Source: an uncultured bacterium
GTDB taxonomy: Bacteria > Patescibacteriota > Minisyncoccia > Phycocordibacterales > UBA9973
DNA: 54,044 nt
NCBI GenBank assembly: GCA_903894955.1
Contig: CAITSA010000027.1
Location: forward strand, 1 to 54,044
Direction of reading: 5' to 3'
The position numbers and the translations under genes are program-made. The notes under the pieces are model-generated. The model saw only the letters and a list, made by a program, of their open reading frames with translations. It was not told where the DNA came from and made no database searches. Positions 382 to 41,309 of the stretch are shown here, piece by piece. Numbering within the stretch: position 1 is the first letter of the stretch; every line of letters starts with the position of its first letter.

Positions 382-942
382 TTATCTTATATGCTTCCTT
401 AACATCTTACTTACCTGATTAAGATTCGGAATTTGAAGTTTCACTAAATCCCAGAATTTCTTTGAATGGTTAAATTCTTTTAAATGGCATAATTCATGAA
501 CGATCAGATAATCTTGTAGTTCTTTCGGAAGAAAGATAATTTTATAGTTAAAATTAAGATTTCCTTTTTTAGAACAACTACCCCAGCGTGTCTTTTGATT
601 TTTAATAGATATTTTGTTGTAATGAAATTTATAAAATTGATTAAAATACTCAACTCTGTTTTTAACTAATTCAAGAGATATATCTTTATTTTTTATATAC
701 TCTCTTTTTGTACCCTTAAAAACAGCAATATTTTGTTTTAAATTAAAAAAATCAATTTTTTCCTTAATCCAACTAATTTTATTTTCAATAACAGATAAAA
801 TTCGTGAAAAAAGGACATTTTCCGGATACACTGCCACGACTGAACCATCACAATATACTGCTATGCGCATACGCTTAGCTTTTTTACTTTTTTTGATATC
901 AACAGTTATGTTTTGATTTTTTATTAAAAGTTTTCTTTTCAT
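382..942 (-). CDS. DUF45/YgjP-like HExxH zinc metallopeptidase, terminal gene of the type I R-M operon
   Basis: 186-aa ORF. WGSCSKKGNLNFNYKIIFLP...LIVHELCHLKEFNHSKKFW matches the DUF45/YgjP signature with HExxH. The start lies 2 nt after the hsdR stop. Confidence 0.75.
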   Translation of the reverse strand: MKRKLLIKNQNITVDIKKSKKAKRMRIAVYCDGSVVAVYPENVLFSRILSVIENKISWIKEKIDFFNLKQNIAVFKGTKREYIKNKDISLELVKNRVEYFNQFYKFHYNKISIKNQKTRWGSCSKKGNLNFNYKIIFLPKELQDYLIVHELCHLKEFNHSKKFWDLVKLQIPNLNQVSKMLRKHIR

Positions 943-944
943 AA

Positions 945-3863
945 TTAAAACTTCTTAAGAATTACATCAATTAATCTGTTTAAATACTTTTGAAAATCAC
1001 GAACCATTAGACTGTCTTTATATTCTTGTAAGAGCATTTGTTGAACCTGTCTCTTTATGTCTTTTAGAAAATCTTCTCTGCGAGCTGTGTCTTGCCAGCC
1101 TTCGTCAAGCAAATCGTTTAAATATAGAGCTAAATCAATTGAAAATTGCTTTAGCGAATCTTTTTCAATTTCTCTGACATATCCTTCTTCTTTGGAAAGA
1201 GAATAGAGCGCAAATTGTTCCATATTGAGACCTAAATCTTTTGCTTCAAGATCAACTTTCTTAATATCTCCTGCCAAGTTATATAGTTTTTTTAATGTCT
1301 CTTGTAGTGTCGTCTGTCGTTTTTCAAACTCTGTTTTAATAATCATTAATCTTTCAGAAAACTTTTTAAATATCGGACTAGTGTCTAGGTTTATTGAGAT
1401 TTCATAATTCAAAGCTCGTTCAAGCATTCTAGCTTTGTCTTCATCCTGATCTTTGTATTTTTCAAGTTCTGCGAACTGGTCAAGCCGAACCGGAGTATAA
1501 TTTTTTGTGATTCCTTCAAAATCTACCTTAGATTGAATAATTCCTTTTAGTTTTGAACCATATTCAGAAAGTAGAGCGTAAACATCTCTAGTGTCGACTT
1601 CAAATTCTTTTTTAAATGCTATATAAAAACAAGCAAACCATTCTATCTGTCTTGTAAACGGCAAGAGATATGGGTCTGGAGAAATTATTTCATAAAAGAG
1701 TTTCAATTTATTCCATCCTTCTTTAAAATCTTCTTGTTTTTCAGGATTATCTCTAAAAATTTCAAAACATTTTCGCAAGTTTTCCATTGACGGATTTTCT
1801 GTATTTATTCCTTTGAAAATACTATCTACTTTTTCAAAGCTGGTTTCAAATTCTTTTTTAATAGAATTCATATCTATCATTGATTCCGCTATCTCGTCTT
1901 CGTCAAAATCCAACGCATCTTTTAAATTTTTAGTGATTCCATAATAATCAATTATCAAACCATTTGATTTTTGCGGATATGTTCTATTTGTACGAGCTAT
2001 CGCCTGCAAAAGGTTGTGATGTTGCAGTGGCTTATCTATATACATCGCTTGTTCAACTGGAGCATCAAAACCAGTCAAAAGCATATCGCACACAAGCAAA
2101 AATTTAAGCGGTTGATTTTTATCTTTGAATTTCTTTATAACATCTTTTATTTCGTTCTTAGTTTTATTGTATTTACTAAGTTCTTCTGTGTCGGTATTTA
2201 CTTCACCCGGAGAATAAATAACCTCCGAATATTCTTTCGGCATTATTTGGTCAAAAATTTCTTTATATCTAGCTGTTGTCTCTCGATCATAGCAAACGAC
2301 TTGAGCCTTAAACCCCGCAGGGGCAACATAGGTATTGTAATGCTCATAGATATCTCTAGCCACAGCTTGCATTCTTTTTTCTAGTTTAGTAAAGGCTTGT
2401 TTTCTGCTGTATTTTTTAGAAAGTAAATCTTTTTGTTCTACTGACAAATCACTTGTCGACAAGTCAAACTGTGCGTCAACTTCTTTCTCGTCTATAGAAA
2501 ATTTTGATAGTCTTGCCTCGTACACCACCGGAACCGTCGCATTGTCTTCTATTGCTTGTTTTATTGAATAATAATCAAGATATCTCTCTGGGTTACCAGA
2601 AGTCAAAAGACCAAATTCTTCGTGTGTTTTAGATATAGGAGTACCGGTAAAGCCTATCATACTAGCGTTTGGTAAAGAATGTCTTAGATATATTCCTAGG
2701 CTTCCATATTGAGTACGGTGCGCTTCATCAATTAAAACAATAATGTTTGAAGCCTCATTTTTTATATCTTTAATATTTTCATCAAACTTGTGAACTGTTG
2801 AAATAAAAATCCCAGCTTCCGGAGAACTGACGACTTTGAGTAATTGTTCCCTTGATGTCACACGTTCAACATTTTCTCCTCCGCAGTTTATGAAAGTCTC
2901 AAAAATCTGATCGTCCAAATCAACTCTATCTACGAGTATAAAAATTTTAGGATTTTCTAAAAGTTTTTCATAGCGTAATTTCCACGCTGTGAAAAACATC
3001 GTCAAACTCTTTCCAGACCCTTGAGTGTGCCAAACAAGCCCTCTCTTATGCTTGCCTTCTTTTATTCGTTCAAAAATTTTATTAGTTGCTCGAAATTGCT
3101 GATATCGCGCGATTTTTTTTACCAAACCATCATCTGTGGCTTCAAAAACTATAAAATTTTGAATAATATCTAATAAATTACGTCCAGCCAAAAGCGCAAC
3201 AAGAGTGCTTTCCAGTTTTCCCTTATATTCTTCTTCAATTTCCTTATCTTTCCATTCTAGAAAACCTTGCTCCGGTGAATATGTTGTTCCATATACAGTT
3301 TTAATTCCATCTGTGGCTATATTAAAACAATTAGGAATAAAAAGACTTTTAGCATTTCGCTCATAACGCTTTATCTGCCCTATGGCAATAAAATAATCAA
3401 CTTGTTCGGAAGCTGTCGGGCTTTTTGCCTCAATATCAATTATCGGGATTCCGTTCAAGAAAATTAAAATATCTGGTCTAATATTTTCAGCATTTCCGGC
3501 AAAATAAAATTGATTAGTAACGACAAAATGATTGCTATCTACATTATCAAAATCCACAATCTTATAATTTTTTGTCTTACGAGTTTCAGAATCAATCAAG
3601 TCAACGCCATTTCTCATTAGCTCCAAAAATTCCTTATTGGTTTCAATTCCACGAATTATCTGAACAATATTCCTCATTTCACCGCTTTCAACTTTGCCAT
3701 TAATCCGGCGAATAGCATCCTGCAAAAGTGGTTCGGCAATATACTCATTCTCGTAATGTCGCAATTTATCAAAAATCTCCGGCTTAATGTATTCAAAACC
3801 AAGTTCTTTTTGAATAAATGTAATAATGTGATTTTCTATTGTATATTGTTCGTTGAATTTCAT
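945..3863 (-). CDS. hsdR: Type I restriction enzyme R subunit (nuclease-helicase)
   Basis: 972-aa ORF with an N-terminal D...ExK nuclease region (RPDILIFLNGIPIIDIEAK). SF2 motifs: HTQGSGKSLTM (Walker A), VLIDEAHRTQYG (DEAH), GFTGTP and LQAIARTNR. Confidence 0.93.
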   Translation of the reverse strand: MKFNEQYTIENHIITFIQKELGFEYIKPEIFDKLRHYENEYIAEPLLQDAIRRINGKVESGEMRNIVQIIRGIETNKEFLELMRNGVDLIDSETRKTKNYKIVDFDNVDSNHFVVTNQFYFAGNAENIRPDILIFLNGIPIIDIEAKSPTASEQVDYFIAIGQIKRYERNAKSLFIPNCFNIATDGIKTVYGTTYSPEQGFLEWKDKEIEEEYKGKLESTLVALLAGRNLLDIIQNFIVFEATDDGLVKKIARYQQFRATNKIFERIKEGKHKRGLVWHTQGSGKSLTMFFTAWKLRYEKLLENPKIFILVDRVDLDDQIFETFINCGGENVERVTSREQLLKVVSSPEAGIFISTVHKFDENIKDIKNEASNIIVLIDEAHRTQYGSLGIYLRHSLPNASMIGFTGTPISKTHEEFGLLTSGNPERYLDYYSIKQAIEDNATVPVVYEARLSKFSIDEKEVDAQFDLSTSDLSVEQKDLLSKKYSRKQAFTKLEKRMQAVARDIYEHYNTYVAPAGFKAQVVCYDRETTARYKEIFDQIMPKEYSEVIYSPGEVNTDTEELSKYNKTKNEIKDVIKKFKDKNQPLKFLLVCDMLLTGFDAPVEQAMYIDKPLQHHNLLQAIARTNRTYPQKSNGLIIDYYGITKNLKDALDFDEDEIAESMIDMNSIKKEFETSFEKVDSIFKGINTENPSMENLRKCFEIFRDNPEKQEDFKEGWNKLKLFYEIISPDPYLLPFTRQIEWFACFYIAFKKEFEVDTRDVYALLSEYGSKLKGIIQSKVDFEGITKNYTPVRLDQFAELEKYKDQDEDKARMLERALNYEISINLDTSPIFKKFSERLMIIKTEFEKRQTTLQETLKKLYNLAGDIKKVDLEAKDLGLNMEQFALYSLSKEEGYVREIEKDSLKQFSIDLALYLNDLLDEGWQDTARREDFLKDIKRQVQQMLLQEYKDSLMVRDFQKYLNRLIDVILKKF

Positions 3864-4594
3864 ATCTTTTTTGATAGTTCGCTAATAATTACTTTTGCAA
3901 AGTCAAGAAACACACGCTTAAAATTCTCATACTCTTCTTTTTCTAATTTTATTTCTTCCTTATCTTTATATTTAGTTTTATAGGTAGTATCTCTTACTTG
4001 GTTCAAAAAACCATGATCAACTTTACTATTATTGTGAACAATAATATTTCTCAAGGCTTCTCCAAGAATCATTAAATCTTTTCCGGAATCTTCTAATTCG
4101 ATATTTATACTCAAATATTCTTCAAAAAATCTTAGTGTACTTTTTAAATCTTGAAAATTTACTTCACCCTTTAGCGAAGTCAAAACTAATTCACCAACAG
4201 TTGGAGCAGAGTATCTTAATAAAGTTACATCCACGGGTAATTTTTTCTTTGATTCTGGCCAAGTTATAATACTTGGATATTTATCTATTATATTTTTTAC
4301 CAAACTATTTAAAAAAGACTCAAAATTTTCAACAATTAACACCAATGCTTGATTGTGAATAATTTCATATTTCTTTTTTAAAGATTTATGCTCTTTTATA
4401 TTACGGATTGTTTCAATTGTAGTATTTAATTTGTTTTTATACTCAAGAAAAGCAGGCATATTCTCATACTTCTTTTCTAAACCTTCCAGAAGTGAAACAA
4501 CTAAATTACCCACATCATCACCAATATTTATAATTTGATCTATCATTTTTAGATTCTCCTCAAAATTTTCTTTTACAGAATTTAAGTTTTCCAT
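3860..4594 (-). CDS. Uncharacterised helical protein with HEPN-like R-x4-H motif, inserted between hsdS and hsdR
   Basis: 244-aa ORF with an ATGA overlap with hsdR and a 1-nt overlap with hsdS. GEALRNIIVHNNSKVD (nt 4031-4057) gives R-N-I-I-V-H in the C-terminal third. The family call is tentative. Confidence 0.5.
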   Translation of the reverse strand: MENLNSVKENFEENLKMIDQIINIGDDVGNLVVSLLEGLEKKYENMPAFLEYKNKLNTTIETIRNIKEHKSLKKKYEIIHNQALVLIVENFESFLNSLVKNIIDKYPSIITWPESKKKLPVDVTLLRYSAPTVGELVLTSLKGEVNFQDLKSTLRFFEEYLSINIELEDSGKDLMILGEALRNIIVHNNSKVDHGFLNQVRDTTYKTKYKDKEEIKLEKEEYENFKRVFLDFAKVIISELSKKI

Positions 4595-5736
4595 TATTTT
4601 ACTCTGACTTTTCCGTTCAAGAGATCCGACATTAATCCCTTTTTTAATTGGATAAGTTTTTCTTTTAACTTTTTGTTAACTGTAATTTTTTCATCTACAC
4701 TCGAAAGAATTTCTGTAATTTTTTCTTGTTCAGGTTTTTTGGGAACAGCAAAAATAGCTTGTTCCAAATATTTAAAATGACGATTATATCCTGTGTTTGG
4801 TATATCTAGTTTTAATAATGAATAAAATAAAAATTTAGGATCATTTTCTTTTTTTGCCCAAATTATTTTAGTTCCATCATTTCCTAATACATAAGGAAAA
4901 TCTATATATTTTAGTATTCTTGTGTGGTCACCAAAAATTATTGTGGGGATTTTTTCTTGAAGCAAATCATTGCTATCTGTGTATCCTGTAATAAAACTTT
5001 GTGCTTGGTCAATTATTGGATATCTCCCTTGTTCTTTGTAATCAGACTTTTTTAACCCTTGTAATTTAGAAGCAACGTCAAAACAATCATTAAATGATTT
5101 TACTTGCCAATTTTCTGGAATTTCTCCAAGTTTTGTTTTTTTGAATTTAGTATGTCCAATACCTTTTGTTAAAAGCTCTTGCATTAAACCTGACTTTATT
5201 TTTCCAGTTTCCTCAATAATTTTCTCCGTCTTTTCAATATCTTCATCCACCTTACTTAAAATTTCAGCAATTTTTTCTTGCTCAAGTTTTAATTTCGGCA
5301 AACAAACAGGTAATTCCATCAATACTTCTTTATTTAATTTTTTCCTAGTTCCACCAGTTGTGTAAATATCTAAATTTACCCAATTTAAATATTGTTCAAG
5401 GTAAATATTAGAAGATAATCCTTTTGCTTTTAAGACATGCGCATGATTATTTACCCAACTTTTACCTTTTACAATAAAAGACTTATTAACGAATGGTAAC
5501 CAATCAGCACCGTCCTCCCCAATAACAAGAATTTCTTCGTCAAAAATAAAATCACCAACATAATCAATAATTCCGGTTGCACCATAATAAGGAATATCCC
5601 CAGAAACTCTGTCAGATTTAGTAATAGGGATTCTTCTATTGTCTAAGTTGTTGCATAAATTAGAAAGTGGTAATATTTGCCACCCATCCGGAATATTTTT
5701 TTCTTTTAAATTAATCATTTTATATACTAAAAACAT
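4594..5736 (-). CDS. hsdS: Type I R-M specificity subunit
   Basis: 380-aa ORF with two target-recognition halves. Each half is followed by a conserved helical spacer (LEQEKIAEILSKVDEDIEKTEKII...LMQELLTKG and PEQEKITEILSSVDEKITVNKKL...LMSDLLNGK). An alternative start, MINLKEK at 5718, lies 1 nt after the upstream stop. Confidence 0.9.
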   Translation of the reverse strand: MFLVYKMINLKEKNIPDGWQILPLSNLCNNLDNRRIPITKSDRVSGDIPYYGATGIIDYVGDFIFDEEILVIGEDGADWLPFVNKSFIVKGKSWVNNHAHVLKAKGLSSNIYLEQYLNWVNLDIYTTGGTRKKLNKEVLMELPVCLPKLKLEQEKIAEILSKVDEDIEKTEKIIEETGKIKSGLMQELLTKGIGHTKFKKTKLGEIPENWQVKSFNDCFDVASKLQGLKKSDYKEQGRYPIIDQAQSFITGYTDSNDLLQEKIPTIIFGDHTRILKYIDFPYVLGNDGTKIIWAKKENDPKFLFYSLLKLDIPNTGYNRHFKYLEQAIFAVPKKPEQEKITEILSSVDEKITVNKKLKEKLIQLKKGLMSDLLNGKVRVK

Positions 5737-6571
5737 TATTGCCTATATCTTTACTACATTCATCACAATAACTATTGTGACCATAATTAGATGCTGATAA
5801 CCAGTTTCTTGTAAATTGCTTTCCGCATTTTATACACTTTTGAGATCCCAAAGATGCCAAGCGTATCCCATTATTAAGTTCTGCGGAAGTAACTATATTA
5901 ATAGGCTCACTCAACACACTTGACCCCCAAACAACACCATGGGTTGATTGAGAACGATCTTTTTTTATTTCCTTAATTTGTTTTTCTAAATCACTAATTT
6001 TTTTCTTTAATTCCTGTTCAATTTTCTCATCATTTGCAGAAGCTAACTCTTTTCTCTTTTCAAGAAGTTCAATCATCACAGATTGTGCTGCATCTTTATA
6101 TTTCTTTTCAATTTCAGCTTCTTTTTCACTTTTTTCTTTTAATTCTGGGACAATATCTATCCAATCTGCTAAACCAGAAGCAATATTGAGTTCAATTGTT
6201 GAAATATGCCTATTAATTTCTTCTAATATATTTTTACCCTCTGTTTTTTTAGTTTTTTTTAAAAAATCATCAACCCAAATTTTTACATTACAAAGCTGTG
6301 TACTAATACCTTGTAGATTACGAAGGGCAGATCTTCCTTTCTTTTCTAAAATATTTTGCCCGACTATTTTTTCATAATCATCCTTTACAAAACTTCCAGC
6401 AAAACCAGCAAAGAAGCTCCCGAGAACAGTAAGCAATGTTGAAAAAAGAGTATTGTCTTTAAAAAAGTATGCAAAAATCAAACTTAATACAGTAAAAAGA
6501 CTAAAAATAGCAGCCCCAGGACTAGAGGTAACGTTCCAAAATATTTTCCACTTTTCTTTTTGAGTTTTCAT
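5720..6571 (-). CDS. Uncharacterised 2-TM / coiled-coil / C-terminal zinc-ribbon protein inserted between hsdM and hsdS
   Basis: 283-aa ORF with two hydrophobic helices (AAIFSLFTVLSLIFAYFF, LLTVLGSFFAGFAGSF) and a long Lys/Glu heptad-like stretch. The C-terminus has CIKCGKQF...17 aa...CDECS (CxxC...CxxC). I recognise no family. Confidence 0.6.
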   Translation of the reverse strand: MKTQKEKWKIFWNVTSSPGAAIFSLFTVLSLIFAYFFKDNTLFSTLLTVLGSFFAGFAGSFVKDDYEKIVGQNILEKKGRSALRNLQGISTQLCNVKIWVDDFLKKTKKTEGKNILEEINRHISTIELNIASGLADWIDIVPELKEKSEKEAEIEKKYKDAAQSVMIELLEKRKELASANDEKIEQELKKKISDLEKQIKEIKKDRSQSTHGVVWGSSVLSEPINIVTSAELNNGIRLASLGSQKCIKCGKQFTRNWLSASNYGHNSYCDECSKDIGNNVFSI

Positions 6572-6575
6572 TTTT

Positions 6576-8273
6576 CTAATATTTTAATTCTTTTAAATAC
6601 CCCTCGACTTTTTTGTTAATTTCTTCTTTTTCTTTCTCAATTTGCTTTAATTCTTTCCACACGACTGAAACATCAATTTTTTCCTCTATTTCCGATGAGT
6701 CAATGTATCGGCGAACATTTAAGTTATAATCATTTTCTTTTATCTCTTCTGCACTGATTACTCGTGCATATTTATTTATATCCTTCCAGTTATCAAAAGC
6801 AGAAGCAATTTTTTCTATATCTTGGTTACGAAGCGAGTTTTGATTTTTTCCTTCTTGATAATCACGCTCGGCATCTATAAACAGAATTTTATTCTTGTGA
6901 TTTGCCGGTTTTGTTTTATTTAAGATTAACAAGGCTACAGGAATACCTACTCCGAAGAAAAGCTTGGAAGGCATAGCGATAACTGCTTCTATTAAGTCAT
7001 TTTTTAAAACTTGTTCACGAATTCTGCCAGAAGTGTCGGATTTAAAAAGCACGCCGTGGGGCACAACAATACCGGCTTTGCCATTTTCGTTTAAAGATTT
7101 AATGATGTGGAGAATAAAAGCATAATCAGCATTTTTCTTTGGTGGGAGTTCATATCCATCTGTGCGAGCGTGTTTATCATGCACAAAAGTGTCCCATTCC
7201 CATTCTTTTATAGAATAAGGGAAGTTTGCAACAACGTGGGAAAAAGTCTGCATTTTTCCAGCTTTGTCTAGAAATTGAGGGTCTGCAAGAGTATCTCCTC
7301 GGCGGATGTCGGTACTTTCAAGTCCGTGCAAGAACATATTTATTTTTGCAATTCCGAAAGTTCCAATTTCTATTTCTTGGCCAGACAAGTACATCTTGCG
7401 AGCTTCTTTATCACTAAATTTTTCACGAACATAATGATAAGCTTCAAGTAGAAAACCTCCCGAGCCACAGGTCGGATCATGGACATGACTTTTTGCATCC
7501 GGTTTTATTATTTTCATTATTACTCTTTCAATTTCTCTCGGACTGTAGAACTGGCCTCCTTTTTTGCCGGAGTCGGAAGCAAATTGCTTTATAAGATATT
7601 CATAAGCATCACCGAGAATATCAGAATTTATATAAGTGTTTCCAAAATTATATTTTGAAAAATGATTTACAAGACGTTGAAGTGTTTCATTGGGAAAACG
7701 GTCTTTGTCAGCAAAATTTAAATTATTAAAAATTTTATCAAGCTTTGGACTATTGGCGGTAGTTATTTTATCAAAAACATCATTAAACTTTGCGCCTATG
7801 TTGATAGCTTCTTTCTGAATCTCAGACCAACGACAATCTTTAGGAACTTGAAATTTATGATTGTAATCTGCGTGAGCAAGTTCTTCGTCGTGAAATTTTT
7901 CTAAAATACTTTCATATTCTTCATCCCAGACATCACTTATTCTTTTATAAAATAGAAGTCCGAAAATATAAGTCTTGTAATCTCCACTATCAATTTTCCC
8001 TCGGAGAATGTCTGCGCTTTTCCAAAGAAAAGATTTAAGAACTTCAAGCGACATTTTTTCTTCTTTCTCCGGTGCATCTTTGTCTAAATTCATAACAGGA
8101 TGGGCTAATCCTTTATCAACTATTTTATTTATGATATCTTGTGTATATCTTCGGTCTTGCCTTTTACCCACGCGTAGAGGTTTGATAAGACCCTGGTCTT
8201 CCCAATTACGGAGAGTATCTTCATGAACGCCTAAAATTTTCGCTGCTTCTTTTATTGAATAATTATTGGTCAT
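6576..8273 (-). CDS. hsdM: Type I R-M N6-adenine DNA methyltransferase subunit with fused N-terminal MerR/excisionase-type HTH
   Basis: 565-aa ORF with the SAM motif DPTCGSGGFLLEA and the catalytic motif VVANFPYS (NPPY-like). The first ~55 aa (YSIKEAAKILGVHEDTLRNWEDQGLIKPLRVGKRQDRRY) look like a MerR/excisionase HTH. Confidence 0.93.
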   Translation of the reverse strand: MTNNYSIKEAAKILGVHEDTLRNWEDQGLIKPLRVGKRQDRRYTQDIINKIVDKGLAHPVMNLDKDAPEKEEKMSLEVLKSFLWKSADILRGKIDSGDYKTYIFGLLFYKRISDVWDEEYESILEKFHDEELAHADYNHKFQVPKDCRWSEIQKEAINIGAKFNDVFDKITTANSPKLDKIFNNLNFADKDRFPNETLQRLVNHFSKYNFGNTYINSDILGDAYEYLIKQFASDSGKKGGQFYSPREIERVIMKIIKPDAKSHVHDPTCGSGGFLLEAYHYVREKFSDKEARKMYLSGQEIEIGTFGIAKINMFLHGLESTDIRRGDTLADPQFLDKAGKMQTFSHVVANFPYSIKEWEWDTFVHDKHARTDGYELPPKKNADYAFILHIIKSLNENGKAGIVVPHGVLFKSDTSGRIREQVLKNDLIEAVIAMPSKLFFGVGIPVALLILNKTKPANHKNKILFIDAERDYQEGKNQNSLRNQDIEKIASAFDNWKDINKYARVISAEEIKENDYNLNVRRYIDSSEIEEKIDVSVVWKELKQIEKEKEEINKKVEGYLKELKY

Positions 8274-8396
8274 AGGGGTAGTATATACCTATTCGTTTCA
8301 AATGTCAAGTGTATTACACTTTTTCCTAACTCTTCCTATGTTGCTAACCTAGGAATAGGTAAAAGTTAATAGTTTTATTAATATAAGGTATTTGCC

Positions 8397-8987
8397 TTGT
8401 TTAAATATATGCTACAATACCCATATATGTCCGACGAACCATTAAATAACGAGCAAATAGAGCCTTCTAGCCCATTACCCATAAATACAATGGGTTCTGA
8501 GCCTATTAATATGCCCCCTGAAGCCCCAGAATCCCCTAAAAACGCAGAGATACCCGTTTCCCTCAATAATGATAATCCAGAAAATGAGCCTATTTCCACC
8601 CCTAGCCCCGAGGAAGCCATCCCATTAGAATCAACGGATCTGCCAGCAAATCCTGCTTCAAACGGAACAAATGAACCCTTGGTTGAGCCAGTTTCCGAAA
8701 CCCGAACGGCTCAAGTACCAGTAAATGAGCCGTTGGTGAAAATATCTCTCGCTCGTGAACTTCTCGTTAAAGCTAGAAATATGATTCAATTTCGAAAAAG
8801 AAAGAAATTAGATCGTGTTATGACTTTGTTTTTGAAAAAATCTAAAATTACAAATGACGAAGTTAGAGAATTTTTGCACGTATCGGATGCAACGGCTGAA
8901 AGATATTTAAATGCTTTAGAAAAAGAAAATAAAATTAAACAAACCGGAAAAACTGGGCACTCGGTATTTTATCAAAAAGTAATATAA
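8397..8987 (+). CDS. Pro/Glu-rich protein with C-terminal winged-helix DNA-binding domain
   Basis: 196-aa ORF with a low-complexity N-terminal half. The C-terminus ITNDEVREFLHVSDATAERYLNALEKENKIKQTGKTGHSVFY looks like a DeoR/MarR-style wHTH. The true start is uncertain (Met at 8397, 8409 and 8427). Confidence 0.55.
   Translation: MFKYMLQYPYMSDEPLNNEQIEPSSPLPINTMGSEPINMPPEAPESPKNAEIPVSLNNDNPENEPISTPSPEEAIPLESTDLPANPASNGTNEPLVEPVSETRTAQVPVNEPLVKISLARELLVKARNMIQFRKRKKLDRVMTLFLKKSKITNDEVREFLHVSDATAERYLNALEKENKIKQTGKTGHSVFYQKVI
8702..8737. repeat. 36-nt hairpin-forming element inside the wHTH gene, inverted copy of 9777-9812
   Basis: ccgaacggctcaagtaccagtaaatgagccgttggt. The reverse complement of 9777-9812 matches at 34 of 36 positions by my manual alignment. 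Confidence 0.8.
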
Positions 8988-8998
8988 TTTATTTATTT

Positions 8999-9496
8999 AT
9001 GAAATGGGTCGCTATCGCCGGAGCTTGGAGAAAAACAAATAAGCAAGTCGAAGAAGACGTCAGAAAAACGGTTAAAGAAATAATTTCTCAAAGAAACGGA
9101 ATAATATCCGGCGGAGCTTTGGGAGTTGACTATTTTGCAACCGATGAAGCCTTGAAACTTGGCTGTGATTCAAAACAAATTAAAATTTTTATTCCCTCAA
9201 CTCTTGAAATTTATAAAACTCATTATTTTAATCGAGCCAAAGAAGGAGTTGTAACAGAAGAACAGGTAAAATCTCTTATTGCTCAATTAGAAAAAATAAA
9301 AGAGCTGAATGCATTAGTAGAAGGAAAAGATATTATTTTAAATAAAGAAATATATTTCAATAGAATTACGGAAATTATTAAAAATGCCGATGAATTGGTT
9401 GCTTTTCATGTAAATAAAACCGAAGGAACCCAAGACACGATTGATAAAGCAAACAAGAAAGGGATTTCTGTTAAGATATTTGAATATTCTATCTAA
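8999..9496 (+). CDS. SLOG/DprA-like Rossmann-fold protein (predicted nucleotide binding)
   Basis: 165-aa ORF. VAIAGAWR...GIISGGALGVDYFATDEAL resembles the GGxxGxD loop of DprA/YpsA/LOG-type SLOG domains. Tentative. Confidence 0.45.
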   Translation: MKWVAIAGAWRKTNKQVEEDVRKTVKEIISQRNGIISGGALGVDYFATDEALKLGCDSKQIKIFIPSTLEIYKTHYFNRAKEGVVTEEQVKSLIAQLEKIKELNALVEGKDIILNKEIYFNRITEIIKNADELVAFHVNKTEGTQDTIDKANKKGISVKIFEYSI

Positions 9497-16641: not shown

Positions 16642-16714
16642 AAGTTTTGCATTTAATCGTTTGGTTTGGTAATATGTAAAAGTTATATATTTTGGTCGTT
16701 AGACTTAGGTATAT

Positions 16715-16787
16715 GGGCCGTTAGCTCATCTGGTAGAGCACCTCATTTGCAATGAGGGGGTGGCAGGTTCGAGTCCTGTACGGTCCA
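16715..16787 (+). tRNA. tRNA-Ala (anticodon UGC)
   Basis: Manual cloverleaf: acceptor GGGCCGT/ACGGTCC with the G3:U70 Ala identity pair, D arm GCTC-ATCTGGTA-GAGC, anticodon arm CCTCA-TTTGCAA-TGAGG, and T arm GCAGG-TTCGAGT-CCTGT. CCA is not encoded. Confidence 0.92.
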
Positions 16788-18279
16788 CCCTAGAGTACGA
16801 AGACGCAGAAATTGCGTCTTTTACTTTGAAAACATTGGCTACTTCTTGTGTTCCAAATATTCTATTTTCAAATGTCAGACCTTGTGGAAATTGGAACCAC
16901 TGCAATTTAATTTTTATTCCTATCTTTTTTATTTCAGACCATGTTTTACTTGGTTGTTTTAAGTATTCTTCCATAAATTCAATCATCTTTTCATAGTCAG
17001 CATCACTGTTGGGAATATTAGAAAGGGTGGAACTTGTTTCCATTAGTTGAGTTTCAATAAGTTCTAGTTGTTGCTTCAACACGTTATCACTAATTACTCC
17101 ATCAAGATTTTTCTTAATTATTGCAGATTGTTTTTCATTTAATTCATTCACACGTTTTTCTAGTTGTTCTCTCTCTTTTCGTTTTTCTGCTGTTGCTTTT
17201 ATTAAGTTGTCTCGTACAAGTATTTTAAGTTTTTGATATTTTGTTTCATCTAGTTTATATCTATCCATATATTTTTTGAAGTCGTCTTCAAAAACATCTC
17301 TCCTTAAACTTGATTTATCATTACCAAAACGATAAAACGGATATCGATTTCCTTTACCATTAGTAGACCAACTTCCTGTTAACACCTTACCTTCACTACT
17401 CTTTACAAATTTGCGAAGAGGAAAATCTGGATTATCTGTAAGATAAGCTGAATGCTTTCTTCCTCTTCTTTTTAATATTCTTTGTACTTGATTAAAAAGC
17501 TCTTCTGATACAATTGGCTTAAAATTTCCCTTATGTTTTTCTCCAAACTTAATAATCCACCCTGCAAAAAGTTCATTGGTAAGCATTGAATAAAAATATG
17601 ATTTTGAAAAAGGGTTACCTTTTTTATTTAACAAACCTTCCTTTGTCATCATCCTTCTAATTTCTTCTGTTGGATAGGTATCCAAAGATATAAGCTCAAA
17701 TGTTTTTTGTATTAGAGGAGCCATTATTTCATCTTGCACAATAGTAGCCCTTCCAGCTATTGTGGTATTTTTATAACCAACTGTAGCCATCCACACATAG
17801 CGACCATCACGCATAGCATCCTTCATTCCCCCTGCACAGCGTTCAGAACGTATATCATTATCAAACTGTGCAATGTTTGCCATTGTATTTTCCATAAAAC
17901 GACCAGCAGGGTTGTCTCCGAAAAACTCCGAAGTGGATTTTATTTCTACTCCATATTTTTTTAATAAAATACGAAGATAGCTATAATCATCCACCCTGCG
18001 AGATAGACGGTCTAACTTATAAATTATAACTGCCCTTATTCCATTCTTTTTGTTTGCACAATAATTGAGTAATTTTTGAAGTTCTGTTCTGTCTGCTGTT
18101 TTTGCACTTTCTCCCTGTTCAATGAATATTTCAGCTATTTCATAATCATTTTTTAAACAATATTCTTTACAAATTTTTTCTTGAGTACTTAAACTGTTTC
18201 CCTCATCAACTTGTTCTTTAGTGGAAACTCTAACATAGATAACTGCTTTCTTTCTAGAAACATAATTTATTTCGTTCAT
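16726..18279 (-). CDS. Large serine recombinase (integrase type)
   Basis: Resolvase catalytic domain KAVIYVRVSTKEQ...(Ser nucleophile)...IIYKLDRLSRR, followed by a recombinase domain and a long coiled-coil C-terminus. The likely start is MNEINYV at 18279. The last ~20 codons are the antisense of tRNA-Ala. Confidence 0.85.
   Translation of the reverse strand: MNEINYVSRKKAVIYVRVSTKEQVDEGNSLSTQEKICKEYCLKNDYEIAEIFIEQGESAKTADRTELQKLLNYCANKKNGIRAVIIYKLDRLSRRVDDYSYLRILLKKYGVEIKSTSEFFGDNPAGRFMENTMANIAQFDNDIRSERCAGGMKDAMRDGRYVWMATVGYKNTTIAGRATIVQDEIMAPLIQKTFELISLDTYPTEEIRRMMTKEGLLNKKGNPFSKSYFYSMLTNELFAGWIIKFGEKHKGNFKPIVSEELFNQVQRILKRRGRKHSAYLTDNPDFPLRKFVKSSEGKVLTGSWSTNGKGNRYPFYRFGNDKSSLRRDVFEDDFKKYMDRYKLDETKYQKLKILVRDNLIKATAEKRKEREQLEKRVNELNEKQSAIIKKNLDGVISDNVLKQQLELIETQLMETSSTLSNIPNSDADYEKMIEFMEEYLKQPSKTWSEIKKIGIKIKLQWFQFPQGLTFENRIFGTQEVANVFKVKDAISASSYSRVDRTGLEPATPSLQMRCSTR
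16801..16822 (+). terminator. Intrinsic terminator after tRNA-Ala
   Basis: AGACGCA-GAAAT-TGCGTCT followed by TTT. Confidence 0.55.
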
Positions 18280-18472
18280 ATTCTTTTTTATCCAAAAATG
18301 CCTCAACTAAAATACTTGCCAAATAATCTAGTGATGCGTTTTCAGATAAGTTATTAATAATACCAAAAGAGGGACAACGAAGTGAGTTTTTACTGCTACG
18401 CAAAAGCTCTCGTTGCCCCTCTTTGGGTATAAAATTATTCTCACCTATTAAACTTTTGCGTAGCATTTCCAT
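18254..18472 (-). CDS. Hypothetical small protein upstream of the recombinase
   Basis: 72-aa ORF on the same strand, overlapping the recombinase start. No family recognised. Confidence 0.3.
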   Translation of the reverse strand: MEMLRKSLIGENNFIPKEGQRELLRSSKNSLRCPSFGIINNLSENASLDYLASILVEAFLDKKEYERNKLCF

Positions 18473-18885: not shown

Positions 18886-19042
18886 TATGTATCAAGAGTG
18901 GCGGTAGAGAATTGGCTCGATAACCCCACAGCAACCTGCAAATGTAAGGTGCTAAATCCAACCAGACACGAAAGTGTCAGGAAAGATAAGTTTGCGTCTA
19001 GTCCACGTAAAAAATCTTTCCTCTTTATTAGAGGAATTTTTT
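18886..19042 (+). promoter_or_regulatory. SAM-I (S-box) riboswitch with terminator expression platform
   Basis: TATCAAGAG-TGGCGG-TAGAGA-ATTGGCTCGATAA-CCCCAC-AGCAACC...AAGGTGCTAAATCC...AAAGATAAG follows the SAM-I consensus blocks. Hairpin TTCCTCT-TTATT-AGAGGAA (19018-19036) plus TTTTTT precedes the ATG at 19053. Confidence 0.8.
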
Positions 19043-19530: not shown

Positions 19531-19694
19531 TAGCCTAAACCTTAAGTTTTCTTAGGGCATGGTGAGAATCCCGTGAAGCATAAAGAACTCTTAGTCAGAG
19601 TTCGCCTTCACGGGTCATACTTGGAAACGAGTATGGGTGGTCTAAAAAACCATCAATCTGGCTAAGAGCTTTTTGCGTTTTAGCCTATAAAATC
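19531..19694 (+). promoter_or_regulatory. Candidate structured 5' leader (unclassified)
   Basis: 9-bp helix CCCGTGAAG/CTTCACGGG enclosing AACTCT-TAGTC-AGAGTT. 8-bp helix CATACTTG-GAAA-CGAGTATG with a GNRA tetraloop. Further helices GGTGGT/ACCATC and GGCTAA/TTAGCC. It ends 10 nt before the ATG at 19695. Confidence 0.4.
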
Positions 19695-29656: not shown

Positions 29657-32600
29657 TTAAGGTGTCAAAGTTGTTGAATCAGTGGAAGGAATTACTGCAG
29701 ATGTTGCTGGTAGTGAGCTTGTTTGCCCTGAGTCTGTCGAAGGCGTTGTCACTTCTGGCGTTGGAGTCTCCACTACTGGCTCGACCGCCGAAGCTGAAGT
29801 GGAGGGGGGAGTTGCTGGTTCTGTTGGTGCTGGAGTTTCAGCTGAAGGCTGGTCAGTCACTGGCTCTGACGTTGTACTTGGAGGATGTGCAAGCAAAAGC
29901 AGAGCGTGAACATCGTCTTTGGTTAAACACTCCCCATCCACACAAATTTTTTCTTTAGCATTAAATACATTTGCAAACACATTTCCGATACCATTCCCCG
30001 CATCCGCCAACCAAGTACCAATTTTAATTTTAATATTTGTAAAGAAAGCAGTCACAAAAGATTCCGAAGATGAACCAGGGATTGGGGTGACAGTGCCAGC
30101 CACTCCTTCTAAATTCAAATTCAATTCTTGAATAGCTTTAATAGCAATAGGAACCATTCCTATAGAATTTAAAGATTTCATTCCTTCTTCGTCAGTAGAA
30201 ACTAATTTAGGAACCAAGGCTTCAACTTCTTGAGCAATGAAACCGAGATTTTTAACTGAACCATCTGTTTCATAATTCCAGTTATACAACACAGGCCTTA
30301 AGGACATAACCGTACTTAATCCATAATTCATATCTTCAACATTTTTCTTTAATCGAGCATCGGAACTGCAAGCAATTAAACCTCCAGAAGAGAAAGTACA
30401 GCTAGTGGTATCACTAGCATCCGTAAATTTAGCAATAGTGGCATGAGTAACACTGCCTTTAACTTCTAAAGGAGCTCCGGGAGAGGTCGTCCCAATTCCG
30501 ACGTTGCCAGCAAAATAGTTTTTATCTGACGCACCGGCTTGATATAAACCAAATGGAGAATTTGTCTGTATGCCAGCTGTCTGCGACTCAATATAAACGC
30601 CATAGGTATTTGTCACTGTTCCTCCCGACCCATTATTTAAACCACCGGCATATAATGAATATGCGTTAGAAATTACAGCGCCAGCTACCGTCCCTTGATT
30701 CATCACAAAAGAATAAACTCCGTATGCATTTGTTAATACATTCGTATTTCCCGCACCTGGTGCATTGTATACAGCAAAATTGAGACCGTAAGCATTCGCC
30801 AAAGTGCCAGTTCCTTGGTGTTGGGCTTGCCCATTAATACCCATGATGTTTCCCGTATTATTATATGAACCCTGTTGCACTGCCTGAAAAACTCCAGCTC
30901 GATAGCTACCTGAGGTGCCTGCTGTCGGATTAGAATAGATTATAGGATTATCGGTCATGCTTGTCCCTGATGTAGTGGTATACGTTAGACTCGAAGTTAT
31001 CTTAGTAGCAGTGATTGCCCCAGCCGAAGTTACGTTAAATTGAGAAGATGAACCAACAGATAGCATTTGGGTTGGGCTTGTCGTCCCCACCCCCAATCTA
31101 TTATTTGTATTATCCCAGAAAAAATTAGCATTGTTCTGGGTCAGATATCCACTAGTTGTAGAAATAAAAGGTATTGAGCCAGCAGTTAAAGCAGTAGAAC
31201 CTGAAACTTGGGCTAAGATATTTCTAGTGGTCGAAGGGCTGAAATACAATTGTGTTCCATCATACTCCATTGCTCCAGCTTCGGCTGTTGTAAGATTTGT
31301 GCCGGATGTGAATTTGAGTGGAGCAGTAGAAGCAGTGGCTGTTCCAGCATTTAAATGAAGATAAGCAGTTGGAGAAGAGACTCCCACACCAACGGAACCT
31401 GTATTTGTTATTCTTAAACCATAATTACCCCAAGGTCCAATGACTAAATTACCAGTATTGACAGAGCCATTTGTAAAAATAAGTGCTGAATCGCCTGCTT
31501 GTGTAAGTCCGTTAAAAGAACCCACCGCAAGACTAGGATAAAGACGAATGGCATGACTATCAGAACCCGTAACTGAGAAAATACCTACAAATGATTGGCT
31601 TGCACCAGTGTCCAACGTCAAATTTCCCGAAAAATGACCAGCGCCAGCAACATCCAATTTATACCCTGGCGTCGCCGTCCCAATTCCGACGTTACCTCCA
31701 CTAAATGTAGCTGCATAATTAGTCGTACCTCCGGTTGCATTAACTACTAAACCAGTATTGACTGCAGAAGTCCCATTCCAAGTTCCAGTGCTTTCAATGT
31801 CCATTCCTATTTTGTTAATTGAAGCAGTACTTGAAGTATCGGTGACATTATGAAGGATACCAGTGTAGGCTGTGGTTTTTGCTGCTGAAGATACTGTGTG
31901 AAGTAGAGAGGTTGGAGAAGTGGTGCCGATACCGACGGAGCCGTTATTATTTATCGTCATTGCTAGTGTTGCACTACCAGCATTGTAAGGGTAGAAAACT
32001 AAATTTCCTGTATTGTCTGCCCCGTTTCTTACGGCTCCAATAGAACCAATTGGATTAATAACTCCTGCATCATCTTGAATATTAAAAGCTAATGCTGTCC
32101 CAAACCCATCTCCCATGTCAGAAGTTTTGGTTGTTAATACCCGAACACCCGCAAAAATAGAGTTCGATGTCTGACCACTTCTCTCAAATATTGCGGTGGA
32201 AGTAAGCGCTGAATTGACAGCGTGCAAAATTCCACTTGGCGTCGTCGTCCCAATCCCCACATTCCCACCACTAAAGGTTGCTGCATAATTGGTCGTACCT
32301 CCAGTGGCATTAACTACTAAACCAGTATTGACTGCAGAAGTTCCATTCCATGTACCAGTGCTTTCAATATCCATTCCTATTTTGTTAATTGAAGCAGTAC
32401 TTGAAGTGTCTGTGACACTGTGAAGGATGCCAGTGTAGGCTGTGGTTTTTGCTGCCGAGGAAACTGTGTGGAGCAGAGAGGTTGGAGCGGTTATGCCGAT
32501 GCCAACGTTGCCACCAAAATAATTAGTTCCACTAGATGAATAAAGTGCATAGTTAGCTGTAGCAGCTCCCGAGATATCCCCTATATACAATCCATATTTA

Positions 32601-35600
32601 TTCGTTCCGCTTGAAGCTGTATTAGAAGTTACATAAATTGCATAACTGTTCACTGGAGTACCACTGTCTGACATAGATGAGATGTCTAATCCTTTTATGG
32701 TATTTATTACTCCGGTTCCGGTTCCATAGGCTCCCAATTTCGCCAAACTTAAATTAGTAATATTCCCCGTACTCATAACTCCTCCGTAAAATAACATACC
32801 ATACCCATTTGTAATTGTGCCTGTCCCATAGTGATAAAGTGATCCGGCTATTCCTCTCACGCTCCCAGTATAATTTTGCGAACCATATGGGTTTATACCA
32901 AAATTTCCGGCAAAATGATCATACGTATCTGTGCTTAAATTATTGGTTATCTTAACATAGCTTCCGATACCTAGCACCGCGGATGTAGGATTTGTGACAT
33001 CATTATTAACATATAATTTATAAGTCGGCGTCACCGTTCCAATGCCGACGTTGCCTGAACTTAAAATTCTCATTCTCTCTGTCAGCGCCGTATCACCAGT
33101 AGCATTTCTGGTTGAAAATGCTAGATCTCCAATTGTATTTCCAGTTCCATTGGTAAGTAGCCCCTTTATAGCAGCATAACCGATGGAACTTACAGTTTCT
33201 GATTGAGAATTTCCAAAAACTATCGCACCACCCGCACCAGCAGAACCAGAATTTGAATTTATGGCGAGAGTTCCTGTTTTTACTCCCGCATCAGTTAGTG
33301 CAGCAGTTAATTGACCAGCTCCATATATTTCTGTTTGTGCCATAGGCGTCGCCGTCCCAATCCCCACATTCCCACCACTAAAGGTAGCCGCATAATTAGT
33401 CGTACCTCCGGTTGCATTAACTACTAAACCAGTATTGATTGCGGAAGTTCCATTCCAAGTTCCAGTGCTTTCAATATCCATGCCAATTTTGTTAATTGAA
33501 GCAGTACTTGAAGTGTCTGTGACACTGTGAAGGACGCCGGTGTAGGAAGTTGTCTTTGCTGCTGAAGATACTGTGTGAAGTAGAGAGGTTGGAGCGGTTA
33601 TGCCGATGCCAACAGAGCCGGCAGGTGTAAATGTTGCAATATCTATTTGACCTGTATTTTGTCCCTGTGAGGCATCTCCTGTGTATGTTCCTCCACGAAT
33701 TTTAAATCCACTTGAAACTGACGTGCCTGCTATAACACTATCAACATATGAGACAATGTTTGCTCCTTGTCTCCAAGTTGTCCCATCATAATAGAACGAG
33801 GACATTCCTTGACCGACATCATTTGCAACAACAGTAGTTGGCGATGCTTTTGTTCCTCCTGCAACCATAACATTAATCCCTTTTCCGCCATATGCTCCTG
33901 AACCGTAACTTTCAAATAATATTCCTCTATTGTAGCTTGCTGTAGCTTGCGATTGTGAAGCTAAAATATTCAAATTAGCCCCCGGACTCGTCGTTCCGAT
34001 CCCCACATTCCCACCACTAAAGGTAGCCGCATAATTAGTTGTACCTCCGGTAGCATTAACTACTAAACCAGTATTGACTGCAGAAGTTCCATTCCATGTA
34101 CCAGTGCTTTCAATATCCATTCCGATTTTGTTAATTGAAGCAGTGCTTGAAGTATCGGTGACACTGTGAAGGACGCCGGTGTAGGAAGTTGTCTTTGCAG
34201 CTGAAGATACTGTATGGAGTAAAGAGGTTGGAGAGGTTATACCGATGCCGACGGAGCCAGCATTATCAATACGCATTCGTTCAGTTAAGCTTGTCGCACC
34301 ATTAGTATTTGTAAAAAATGTTATGCGACTACCTTGTGCAGTATCAGTCCATGCTTCATCTGTCATAAAGTTAATCTGCGCTCGTGAACCCGAAGAATAA
34401 CCTGTTGTGCCGTATCCAAACATCCCGATAGAGCCAACTTGTGCTCCCGAAGCCAAAGCACTTGGACTTGCTGCCGTGCCAGCCGCTCGTCGAAAATCTA
34501 ATATTCCGATGCCAGAGTAGGTATCTATAACAGCACGGGTTGTTGCCGAGTCAGCTCCAACAAGGTGGAGATAAGTAGTTGCGGGTGGAGCAACGGGTGC
34601 GACCGTATTCGCATTTATTGTCATCAGAGAGTCCGGACTTGTCGTCCCCACCCCCACATTCCCACCTTTGAAATAGACACCCGTCGTGGATGAAGGTCCA
34701 ATCCAAGATTCAGCTAGAGTGGTTAAAGGATTGAGAGAAGTAGAGTTGGTAATACCTCCAGTCATCGTACCTCCAGCGAGCGGTAGGTCTAAAGAAGAAT
34801 GTCCGGTGAGAGAACCAGTAATCGTTCCAGCAGAGAAATTACCAGAAGCGTCACGAGCGACAATGGTGGAAGCAGTGTTAGCATCAGTGGCATCAGTTCC
34901 AAGAGTGACTCCAGTAGAACCGTTGTAAGAAGTTCCAGTCAGATGTGTGCCAAAAGTTAAGGTACTCAAGTTAGAACCGAGAGCGATGCCACTGATGGTG
35001 GAGTTGGCAAGCATTGCATTGGTGATGGAACTATTGGGTAAAGAAACTGTTCCAATAATGGTTAAGCCACCTGTCCCTTGAATAAGTCCGGATCCAGAAT
35101 TAACTCCGACTGCCGTGACCGCTCCTGCCGAAGAAACTTGAAACTGAGAAGTAGCACCGACAGAGAGAGGAGCAGAAGGCGTCGTCGTCCCAACCCCCAC
35201 ATTCCCATCTTTGAAATAGACACCCGTCGTGGATGAAGGTCCAATCCAAGATTCAGCTAGAGTGGTTAAAGGATTGAGAGAAGTAGAGTTGGTAATTCCT
35301 CCGGTCATGGTGCCTCCAGCGAGGGGTAGGTCTAAAGAAGAATGTCCGGTGAGAGAACCAGTAATCGTTCCAGCAGAGAAATTACCAGAAGCATCTCGAG
35401 CGACAATAGTGGAGGCAGTGTTGGCGTCAGTAGCATCAGTTCCAAGAGTGACTCCAGTGGAACCGTTGTAAGAAGTTCCAGTCAGATGTGTGCCAAAAGT
35501 TAAGGTACTCAAGTTAGAACCGAGAGCAATGCCACTGATGGTGGAGTTGGCAAGCATTGCATTGGTGATGGAACTATTGGGTAAAGAAACTGTTCCAGTA

Positions 35601-40554: not shown

Positions 40555-40652
40555 ACAAAGAATTGTTGACCGAACTGTTACCGGACGGTGGCGTGGCTGG
40601 GACAACCAGCATAGGAAACAATCCGAGAAAAAACCCTTCGGGGTTTTTTCTT
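40555..40652 (+). ncRNA. Candidate ~100-nt small RNA (promoter-to-terminator unit without an ORF)
   Basis: Bounded by the promoter above and the terminator below. It has a GC-rich core with hairpin GCTGG-GACAA-CCAGC and is antisense to the tgt upstream region. Confidence 0.3.
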
Positions 40653-40655
40653 TTA
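40626..40655. terminator. Bidirectional intrinsic terminator
   Basis: GAAAAAACCC-TTCG-GGGTTTTTTC, with an A-tract and a T-tract on either side, directly after the DUF3800 gene stop. Confidence 0.7.
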
Positions 40656-41309
40656 TTTAAATTCCCATTCATCGTCAATTTTTTTCTTAATAATATTTCT
40701 ATAAATTTCCACATCCATTTTCAATCCATTTCTAAATTCAAAATATCTTCTTTCACTACCCGCAACCATATCTGCAAGTTGAATCAAAACATTCTCTTTT
40801 GAATCGACAAAACGCAAATTTTGCATAATTTTCTTTTCATCAGAATTTAAGTTTTTTCTTAAATAAGTAGAAAAATTTCTTTTAAAAACTCTATCACCAC
40901 TTCCATCAATTTTTATTGATGCATTTAAAATACAGTTGTTGCTATATTTTAACAACATTTTAATAACATAACTAAAGAAAGAATTTTTGTTGTGCTTTAA
41001 TTCATTACTGTGTATTTTCCTTTTATCAACAATTAAATATCTAATCTTAAAATCAAAAGGGGTAATTGTTCTAAGAAATTTTTCTCTAATTTTTCTTTTT
41101 GAGTTATTAAATTTAAATTCAAAAGCATCAGGAAAATGTTCCTTTCTCCTCATATCTTTTATAGCAACAGCAGTTTTTTCAGCTTCAAGAAAATCATCAA
41201 ATACAACAGCTACTATTATAAAATAAATACTTGAACCTTTTTCAAGCTTAAAACCAGCATCACCAGACTCATCAATAAAAACTAAAGATTGTAAACCTTT
41301 TTTTATCAT
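40653..41309 (-). CDS. DUF3800-family protein
   Basis: 218-aa ORF with N-terminal VFIDESGD and C-terminal LIQLADMVAGS, the two DUF3800 hallmark blocks. Confidence 0.65.
   Translation of the reverse strand: MIKKGLQSLVFIDESGDAGFKLEKGSSIYFIIVAVVFDDFLEAEKTAVAIKDMRRKEHFPDAFEFKFNNSKRKIREKFLRTITPFDFKIRYLIVDKRKIHSNELKHNKNSFFSYVIKMLLKYSNNCILNASIKIDGSGDRVFKRNFSTYLRKNLNSDEKKIMQNLRFVDSKENVLIQLADMVAGSERRYFEFRNGLKMDVEIYRNIIKKKIDDEWEFK

Follow-up and report, generated by a model that had tools for sequence, protein, structure and literature searches.

The window analysed here is a 54,044-nucleotide (nt) stretch of contig CAITSA010000027.1 from an uncultured bacterium of the Patescibacteriota, within the candidate phyla radiation (CPR). 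Six minus-strand open reading frames (ORFs) spanning positions 382-8273 follow one another in the order hsdM–p283–hsdS–p244–hsdR–ygjP-like. Three belong to a type I restriction–modification (R-M) system, the last encodes a peptidase, and two passenger genes, p283 and p244, named here by the length of their products, lie on either side of hsdS. The six ORFs, their coordinates, strand and gene order all match the ORF list, as the original prediction made from the sequence had stated. In the direction of transcription, preceded by two upstream elements, the features are:

8319..8357, minus strand: conserved 39-nt upstream block with TTCCTA-N11-TAGGAA, identical in the sister operon L070, with 20 nt identical in L071/L072
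8280..8308, minus strand: promoter-like site TTGACA-N17-TATACT, 11/12 matches, the best site in the first 9 kb, directly upstream of hsdM
6576..8273, minus strand: hsdM, 565 amino acids (aa), with a MerR-type helix-turn-helix (HTH; residues 5-49), HsdM_N and N6_Mtase
5720..6571, minus strand: p283, 283 aa, unannotated family, with a transmembrane (TM) hairpin, helical core, coiled coil, linker and four-cysteine (C4) zinc ribbon
4594..5736, minus strand: hsdS, 380 aa, two target-recognition domains (TRDs); the alternative start at 5718 gives 374 aa
3860..4594, minus strand: p244, 244 aa, putative divergent RiboL-PSP-type HEPN protein with the predicted RNase motif R182-N-I-I-V-H187
945..3863, minus strand: hsdR, 972 aa, with the PD...ExK nuclease (PD...EAK), GSGKS and DEAH motifs intact
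382..942, minus strand: YgjP-like (DUF45/M48-type) zinc metallopeptidase, 186 aa, PF01863 at 5.8e-38

The gaps and overlaps of only a few nt that had been claimed between these genes were confirmed by reading all five junctions. hsdM and p283 are separated by 4 nt, and p283 overlaps hsdS by 17 nt, or leaves a gap of 1 nt if hsdS begins at the ATG at 5718. hsdS and p244 share the single base 4594, p244 and hsdR overlap by 4 nt in an ATGA at 3860-3863, and a gap of 2 nt (942/945) precedes the ygjP-like gene. No convincing minus-strand terminator was seen within the six-gene operon. That the genes form one transcript and are translated in a coupled manner can reasonably be inferred from the one strong promoter, the tight junctions and the lack of an internal terminator. 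All six ORFs are real genes rather than chance ORFs, since four have strong family matches and the other two belong to conserved families under purifying selection. At 94-108 there is a perfect GC palindrome, CGCGCGAAGCGCGCG, with a run of T after it on the plus strand; it looks like the terminator of a plus-strand gene entering from outside the window and not like that of the R-M operon.

The promoter hexamers and a spacing of 6-7 nt between the -10 box and the ATG are kept in the window (6 nt) and in the sister operons L070 and L071. The hsdM message is probably leaderless, because the -10 box ends only 6-7 nt ahead of the ATG in all three. The 39-nt block at 8319-8357 is conserved although synonymous sites of the coding regions are saturated, and is regarded as a candidate operator that the MerR HTH in HsdM might bind. 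Another candidate operator, the palindrome AGTGTA-A-TACACT at the -35 box, was dropped because it is not kept in L070 or L071. Two plus-strand genes (8397-9496) diverge from the operon promoter. The product of the first, 196 aa long, is rich in Pro and Glu at its N-terminus and has a weak winged HTH at its C-terminus; that of the second is a 165-aa DprA/SLOG-like Rossmann protein (PF02481, score exactly at the cut-off). SLOG domains are partners of effectors with two TM helices (2TM); the pairing of the SLOG-like gene with the operon is absent from the sister loci.

The backbone genes have clear assignments. HsdM matches PF02384 (2.4e-103), PF12161 (1e-25) and PF13411 (6e-11) in Pfam and TIGR00497 in NCBIfam (265.8 bits against a cut-off of 242.75), and its methylase motif I (DPTCGSGGF) is present. 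Motif IV reads NFPY (residues 350-353; window 7215-7226, minus strand) here and in L070 and L071, and NPPY or NPPF in all 28 other HsdM and fused R-M relatives examined. HsdS matches PF01420 (5.4e-35) in two stretches and many Specificity_I models of PADLOC. Identity to the HsdS of L070 is 80% in one half of the protein and only 38% in the other, which points to TRD swapping. HsdR matches TIGR00348 (5.9e-161) together with PF04313, PF18766, PF22679 and PF11867, and has HSDR_N, SWI2_SNF2, T1R_D3 and T1RH C-terminal domains. The YgjP-like protein scores 131.4 bits against PF01863 (cut-off 26) and carries an HExxH motif, HELCH, at residue 149. By its domain content the region is a complete type I R-M operon (MerR-HTH-HsdM, HsdS and HsdR) with a YgjP/M48-type peptidase, and the encoded type I enzyme is apparently active. 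The peptidase had been counted among three non-canonical passengers. Its gene lies directly 3' of hsdR in most sister cassettes, which makes it a regular cassette member instead.

p283 belongs to a protein family that comprised 84 and then 99 clusters in successive searches, all of them unannotated, and that is sharply bounded, with E-values stopping near 1e-36. Almost all members come from metagenome-assembled genomes (MAGs) of CPR/Patescibacteria; the two others are a Melioribacteraceae MAG and one that carries the label Gammaproteobacteria. The K-rich N-terminus of p283 leads into two hydrophobic helices (residues ~17-37 and 42-62) with a 5-residue loop between them, and the second TM helix has conserved small residues, S52 and G59. 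A conserved juxtamembrane helical core (residues 63-145) follows, with the invariant residues L75, K77, K78, G79, S81, A82, R84, Q92, E118, R121, H122, D136, W137 and D139. The coiled coil occupies residues 142-210, long helices reaching residue 210, and a variable disordered linker (211-240) connects it to the C4 zinc ribbon (CxxC...CxxC; C246, C249, C270 and C273), whose four cysteines are present in 41 of the 48 aligned family members. The family alignment and the structural model thus agree with the earlier description of this ORF as a protein with two TM helices, a coiled coil and a zinc ribbon.

The ORF had been put forward as one that was not recognised, and database searches gave the same result. 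Among the 48 family members no Pfam family recurred and none matched SLATT, and p283 had no match in PHROGs or NCBIfam. PADLOC-DB v2.0.0, the one defence database that was searched, holds no model for p283 or p244, and p283 drew only coiled-coil noise from it (LmuB, 0.0018, 15.5 bits). A Foldseek search of the PDB with the p283 model returned no significant match (best E = 1.3), and the family profile run against PDB sequences gave only a weak XPA-like zinc-finger match. No relative was found on IMG/VR viral contigs, so that a phage origin or an anti-restriction role of p283 is unsupported, and a literature search found no published description of the family. Three other identities were considered and rejected. 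A hidden HEPN domain was dismissed because hhalign of the p283 family alignment against that of the HEPN family gave a probability of 0.2%, and membership of SLATT because hhalign against a SLATT_4 protein aligned only 18 TM residues (probability 3%), although a functional analogy with SLATT is possible. The JGI label 'ElaB/YqjD/DUF883 ribosome-binding protein' on one relative lacks Pfam support and implies a different topology, and was taken as coiled-coil noise. Judged by these searches, p283 is a new protein family and a new rider of R-M operons.

The genomic context of the family was surveyed at 47 distinct loci from reference genomes and metagenomes, with Pfam-annotated neighbourhoods. 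At ~80% of the assessable loci p283 lies between the M and S genes of type I or fused R-M systems. The first class (~19 loci) is type I, arranged hsdM-(0-2 genes)-p283-hsdS-(0-2 genes)-hsdR-(ygjP). The second (~13 loci) has no hsdR and consists of a LexA-like HTH/S24 gene, a ~650-aa protein combining HSDR_N_2, N6_Mtase and Eco57I, p283, and an S-like protein of ~450 aa with only faint Methylase_S similarity. By its domains this second class is a fused nuclease-methylase with a specificity subunit; we take it to resemble a BcgI-like (type IIB) system under SOS-type control. As a four-gene operon it recurs in CPR (L019, L021, L011, L013, L014, L017, L018, L054, L057 and L060). The junctions of p283 within R-M operons usually range from -30 to +15 nt.

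Three loci that at first looked like orphans proved to be R-M operons as well. In L003, Pfam identified a type III mod-res pair whose start is overlapped by p283. L006 is a type II operon in which an EcoRI-type methylase is followed after 4 nt by p283 and then by GmrSD/HNH, and L052, also type II, has the order LexA, N6_N4 methylase, a 259-aa gene, HNH and p283. The p283 family therefore rides in R-M operons of four types: type I, fused nuclease-methylase with S, type II and type III. The possibility raised with the original prediction, that the passengers are not conserved in R-M operons, did not hold for p283, which is conserved in many such operons, related and unrelated. True non-R-M loci hold mostly ~210-aa forms without the zinc ribbon (L012, L015 and L025), plus L016, and the relative in L023 adjoins a SMODS+SLATT_4 pair. 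Most R-M-embedded members have the ribbon; those in L002, L008, L009, L018, L045, L051 and L075 lack it.

The window protein p244 had no significant match in Pfam, NCBIfam or PADLOC, and nothing meaningful in PHROGs. A word-indexed search returned 13 relatives and an exhaustive profile search 502 cluster representatives, from which 128 diverse members were aligned (26% mean column identity). Invariance is limited to two columns, R182 and H187, which together make an R-x4-H motif; R-x4-6-H with a polar residue after R is the signature of catalytic HEPN domains (PMC3710099). PF18735 (HEPN_RiboL-PSP) was matched at E <= 0.01 by 25 of the 128 relatives (best 1.5e-6), all of them below the Pfam gathering score, and in a consistent region, from family residues ~60-240 to profile positions 10-190. 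No other family was matched by more than one relative, and one relative matches HEPN_Apea. The AlphaFold2 model is all-helical and of good confidence (pLDDT 85.8, pTM 0.80). Foldseek of this model against the PDB gave no match with E < 0.5, the solved HEPN toxin 7ae6 ranking tenth at E = 1.3, and against BFVD the sole match was an uncharacterised Siphoviridae protein (E = 1e-5). The family profile against PDB sequences found only an artefactual designed repeat protein. We file p244 as a putative divergent HEPN branch near RiboL-PSP, because both the motif and the family-level evidence are in place, and the earlier label 'HEPN-like' stands on the invariant R-x4-H and the family-level PF18735 matches.

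Close relatives of p244 (54-71% identity) were compared for context. One occupies the hsdS–hsdR interval of a sister type I operon (L071/L072), one directly after a 1030-aa N6_Mtase/Type_ISP_C (type ISP-like) enzyme (L028), others after an MmeI-type methylase and helicase (L029-31), and one shares a small island with Vsr, SLFN/AlbA_2 and a C5 methylase fused to LexA (L073); the relative in L026 has no R-M system nearby. At least 16 HEPN clades are linked to R-M systems, PrrC between hsdS and hsdR being the worked example (PMC3710099), and the spread of contexts seen here is the behaviour described for such clades. In some relatives (P0164 and P0195) the N-terminus bears a CHC2 zinc finger of the DnaG-primase type (PF01807, E = 1e-29 to 1e-34), a hint that these versions include a module for sensing nucleic acids.

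Comparison with sister operons revealed a cassette of the form HsdM - [slot 1] - HsdS - [slot 2] - HsdR - YgjP, in which the slots hold interchangeable accessory genes. HsdM is 89-90% and HsdR 89-93% identical between the window and L070 or L071. The contents of the slots are:

Window: slot 1, p283; slot 2, HEPN (p244)
L070: slot 1, p283 (70% identical); slot 2, an unrelated 170-aa gene
L071: slot 1, a Bro-N protein, a 48-aa and a 275-aa gene; slot 2, HEPN (71% identical)
L075: slot 1, p283 (no zinc ribbon), a 285-aa and a 158-aa gene; slot 2, a 99-aa and a 95-aa gene
L076: slot 1, p283; slot 2, a 340-aa unknown

In other p283 operons the slots are filled by RhuM, Bro-N or DUF4145, the last a member of the HEPN clan (PMC3710099). 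The replacement passengers on near-identical backbones lie at 12001-12513 of L070 (the 170-aa gene) and at 1768-3689 of L071 (the Bro-N, 48-aa and 275-aa ORFs); the 170-aa protein has an R-x4-H motif of its own, RNQVMH, and no profile match to the p244 family. Among the census p283 loci, HEPN and p283 occur together in the window only. A fixed six-gene system was rejected because backbones that are ~90% identical swap both slots and because of this single co-occurrence. Neither passenger is needed for the backbone to exist. p283 is accessory rather than a core subunit, since the ~90% identical L071 backbone does without it, and this absence together with its presence in four R-M types argues against a dedicated enzyme subunit. 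The window operon belongs to a family of mobile CPR/Patescibacteria cassettes that often lie beside a serine recombinase; large serine recombinases adjoin hsdM in L070, L075 and L076. Elsewhere in the window, at 16714-18306 on the minus strand, a large serine recombinase gene (526 aa) abuts tRNA-Ala(TGC) with its 3' end, a junction that may mark the boundary of an integrated element.

The ratios of nonsynonymous to synonymous substitution rates (dN/dS) against the sister operons, approximate values because dS is near saturation, were 0.04 for hsdM, 0.03-0.04 for hsdR, 0.07 for ygjP, 0.19 for p283, 0.20 for hsdS and 0.16 for the HEPN gene. The NFPY-type hsdM is under strong purifying selection and, at 0.04, is evidently maintained. 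At 0.19 against 0.04 for HsdM and HsdR, p283 is functional yet faster evolving, and both p283 and p244 are functional, with a rate of evolution 4-5 times that of the enzymes. Faster evolution is common among genes involved in conflict.

The overall explanation towards which we lean, with moderate confidence, is a type I R-M cassette with slots, in which p244 is a latent RNase and p283 a membrane sensor or effector. By analogy with PrrC and other R-M-embedded HEPN genes, p244 would be a metal-independent RNase that stays silent while restriction works. It would be released when a phage neutralises or overwhelms restriction, producing a second-line, translation-arresting abortive infection. p283 would be held in the membrane by its N-terminal hairpin, with both ends cytoplasmic, and would oligomerise through a small-xxx-small zipper in the second TM helix and through the coiled coil. 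Its charged juxtamembrane core and zinc ribbon might sense a signal common to all R-M types, candidates being foreign or cleaved DNA or the failure of restriction, upon which p283 would act on the membrane as an effector. The mechanism of p283 is the weakest step of this scheme, and a membrane effector or sensor is our best guess. More tentatively, and with some doubt, the p283 family may represent a new, essentially CPR/Patescibacteria-specific class of restriction-coupled membrane protein that plugs into any R-M type and links restriction to a membrane event, which could be abortive infection of the pore or depolarisation type, or control of DNA entry.

Several observations weigh against the scheme of latent RNase and membrane sensor. 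The proposed activity of p283 has no structural match in the PDB, by Foldseek or by profile, and no recurrent Pfam family behind it; the zinc ribbon cannot be an obligatory sensor, because several R-M-embedded members lack it; and the core module may have a non-defence role, because the short forms occur outside any defence context. p244 itself has no significant Pfam match, its Foldseek match to the solved HEPN toxin falls short of significance, and neither an antitoxin nor a regulator is apparent as its partner. With NFPY in place of the expected NPP[YF] at motif IV, full methylase activity of HsdM is an assumption.

Other explanations of p283 account for part of the same evidence. It could be a non-toxic membrane tether or organiser that holds the R-M enzymes, or incoming DNA through the zinc ribbon, at the inner membrane face where foreign DNA enters, an arrangement that would be useful in CPR cells, which take up much external DNA. 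The membrane hairpin, the long coiled-coil spacer and the terminal C4 finger of nucleic-acid type with weak XPA-like similarity would suit such a role, as would the near restriction of the family to CPR and the tight translational coupling of p283 to M and S, which suggests co-assembly. We nevertheless consider a tether unlikely: the four R-M types differ mechanistically and have unrelated methylases (gamma-class HsdM, EcoRI-type, and N6_N4 of types II and III), which makes a specific docking partner doubtful, a ~90% identical backbone does without p283, and the zinc ribbon is often lost. Somewhat less probable still is that the passengers are selfish cargo at a recombination hotspot of a mobile R-M cassette, or that p283 is an independent superinfection-exclusion membrane protein, in either case uncoupled from restriction. 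The swapping of both slots among near-identical backbones, the serine recombinases beside the cassettes, the description of the S/R junction as a recombination hotspot (PMC12255303) and the occurrence of close HEPN relatives without any R-M system (L026) would all fit cargo. They have to be set against the strong and repeated preference of p283 for R-M operons of several types, its fixed position after the methylase gene, its absence from viral contigs and the purifying selection acting on it.

A regulatory role, in which p283 would delay or dampen restriction while the system becomes established or following DNA damage (restriction alleviation), perhaps in concert with YgjP, appears improbable to us. 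p283 lies close to the methylase gene within the operon, the peptidase at the end is conserved, and other p283 operons are headed by LexA-like HTH-S24 repressors that hint at damage-linked control. However, p283 lacks a DNA-binding HTH and does not resemble known control proteins or anti-restriction factors, the role is already filled by the MerR fusion or the LexA-like gene, and the presence of p283 is not linked to that of YgjP, the operons with the ~650-aa fused protein (RM650) having p283 and no YgjP.

The remainder of the window contains further features. A giant minus-strand ORF of 2,929 aa (29657-38446) has a C-terminal Peptidase_S74 domain (endosialidase/tail-fibre chaperone) and an N-terminal HTH_17, lies in a stretch of raised GC content (0.41-0.47 against ~0.33), and may encode a prophage tail fibre or surface protein. 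Three RNAs matched Rfam above the gathering score:

18886-18992: SAM riboswitch
19532-19654: LOOT RNA
40560-40628: DUF3800-IX RNA, adjoining a DUF3800 gene (40653-41309) and a tRNA-guanine transglycosylase gene (39111-40487)

The locus had been proposed as a candidate for an undescribed system. As a whole it falls within a known kind, type I R-M operons that have accessory genes embedded in them and a YgjP/M48 peptidase, and p244 is a new, divergent member of an already described HEPN kind; the layout is published for the RRDM island of enteropathogenic Escherichia coli (EPEC), and HEPN genes within R-M operons are established (PMC3710099). The new part is the p283 family, for which there is no annotation. 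The RRDM island has the order RptR - HsdM - HsdS - DarT - DarG - HsdR - M48 peptidase and is experimentally anti-phage, and its authors regard the hsdS/hsdR junction as a place where defence genes are likely to recombine in, a hotspot (PMC12255303). Like the window operon, the island is a type I operon with a single promoter, a regulator at the start, a defence module placed between the S and R genes and a peptidase of M48/YgjP type behind hsdR. The two differ in the regulator, a MerR HTH fused to HsdM in the window and the separate RptR in EPEC, and in the embedded module, HEPN in the window and DarTG in EPEC, and only the window has the extra gene p283 between hsdM and hsdS.

The closest parallel to p244 is the anticodon nuclease PrrC, which lies within the EcoprrI type Ic R-M operon (PMC3710099). 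In both cases a gene for an RNase of HEPN type, predicted in the case of p244, is placed between hsdS and hsdR, and the same logic of a latent and then released activity is proposed. Unlike PrrC and RloC, p244 has no N-terminal ABC ATPase domain, and it falls in the RiboL-PSP branch rather than the PrrC/RloC branch. The p244 family shares with PF18735 the R-x4-H motif and, as predicted by the model of p244, an all-helical fold; it adds an N-terminal region of ~60 residues. p283 is comparable to SLATT and other 2TM effectors of CBASS, Pycsar and retron systems in being small, with a two-helix hairpin and a cytoplasmic helical domain, and in occurring in defence operons. It differs in having no sequence or profile similarity to SLATT beyond the TM segment and in its coiled coil and zinc ribbon, both of which SLATT lacks; moreover, there is no nucleotide-signal synthase in the operon, and only one p283 locus lies near SMODS/SLATT.

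A 'guilt-by-embedding' approach found genes embedded in type I R-M systems to be enriched for defences (bioRxiv 10.1101/2024.01.29.577857). Its PDC/HEC candidates, proposed as new defences, are like p283 and p244 uncharacterised genes that lie on the same strand inside type I R-M systems, and p283 and p244 match neither a PDC/HEC model nor any other model of PADLOC-DB v2.0.0. CPR genomes are scarce in RefSeq. The screen drew on that collection (bioRxiv 10.1101/2024.01.29.577857). CPR bacteria, with small genomes in which CRISPR is rare, are considered to depend mainly on R-M for defence against phages (PMC6509639). Against these known systems p283 is a concrete, testable candidate for a new R-M-coupled function, for which the near-identical backbones with and without each passenger provide natural controls. 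If p283 does represent a restriction-coupled membrane class, it would be a layer of defence missing from current catalogues, in a huge radiation largely without CRISPR.

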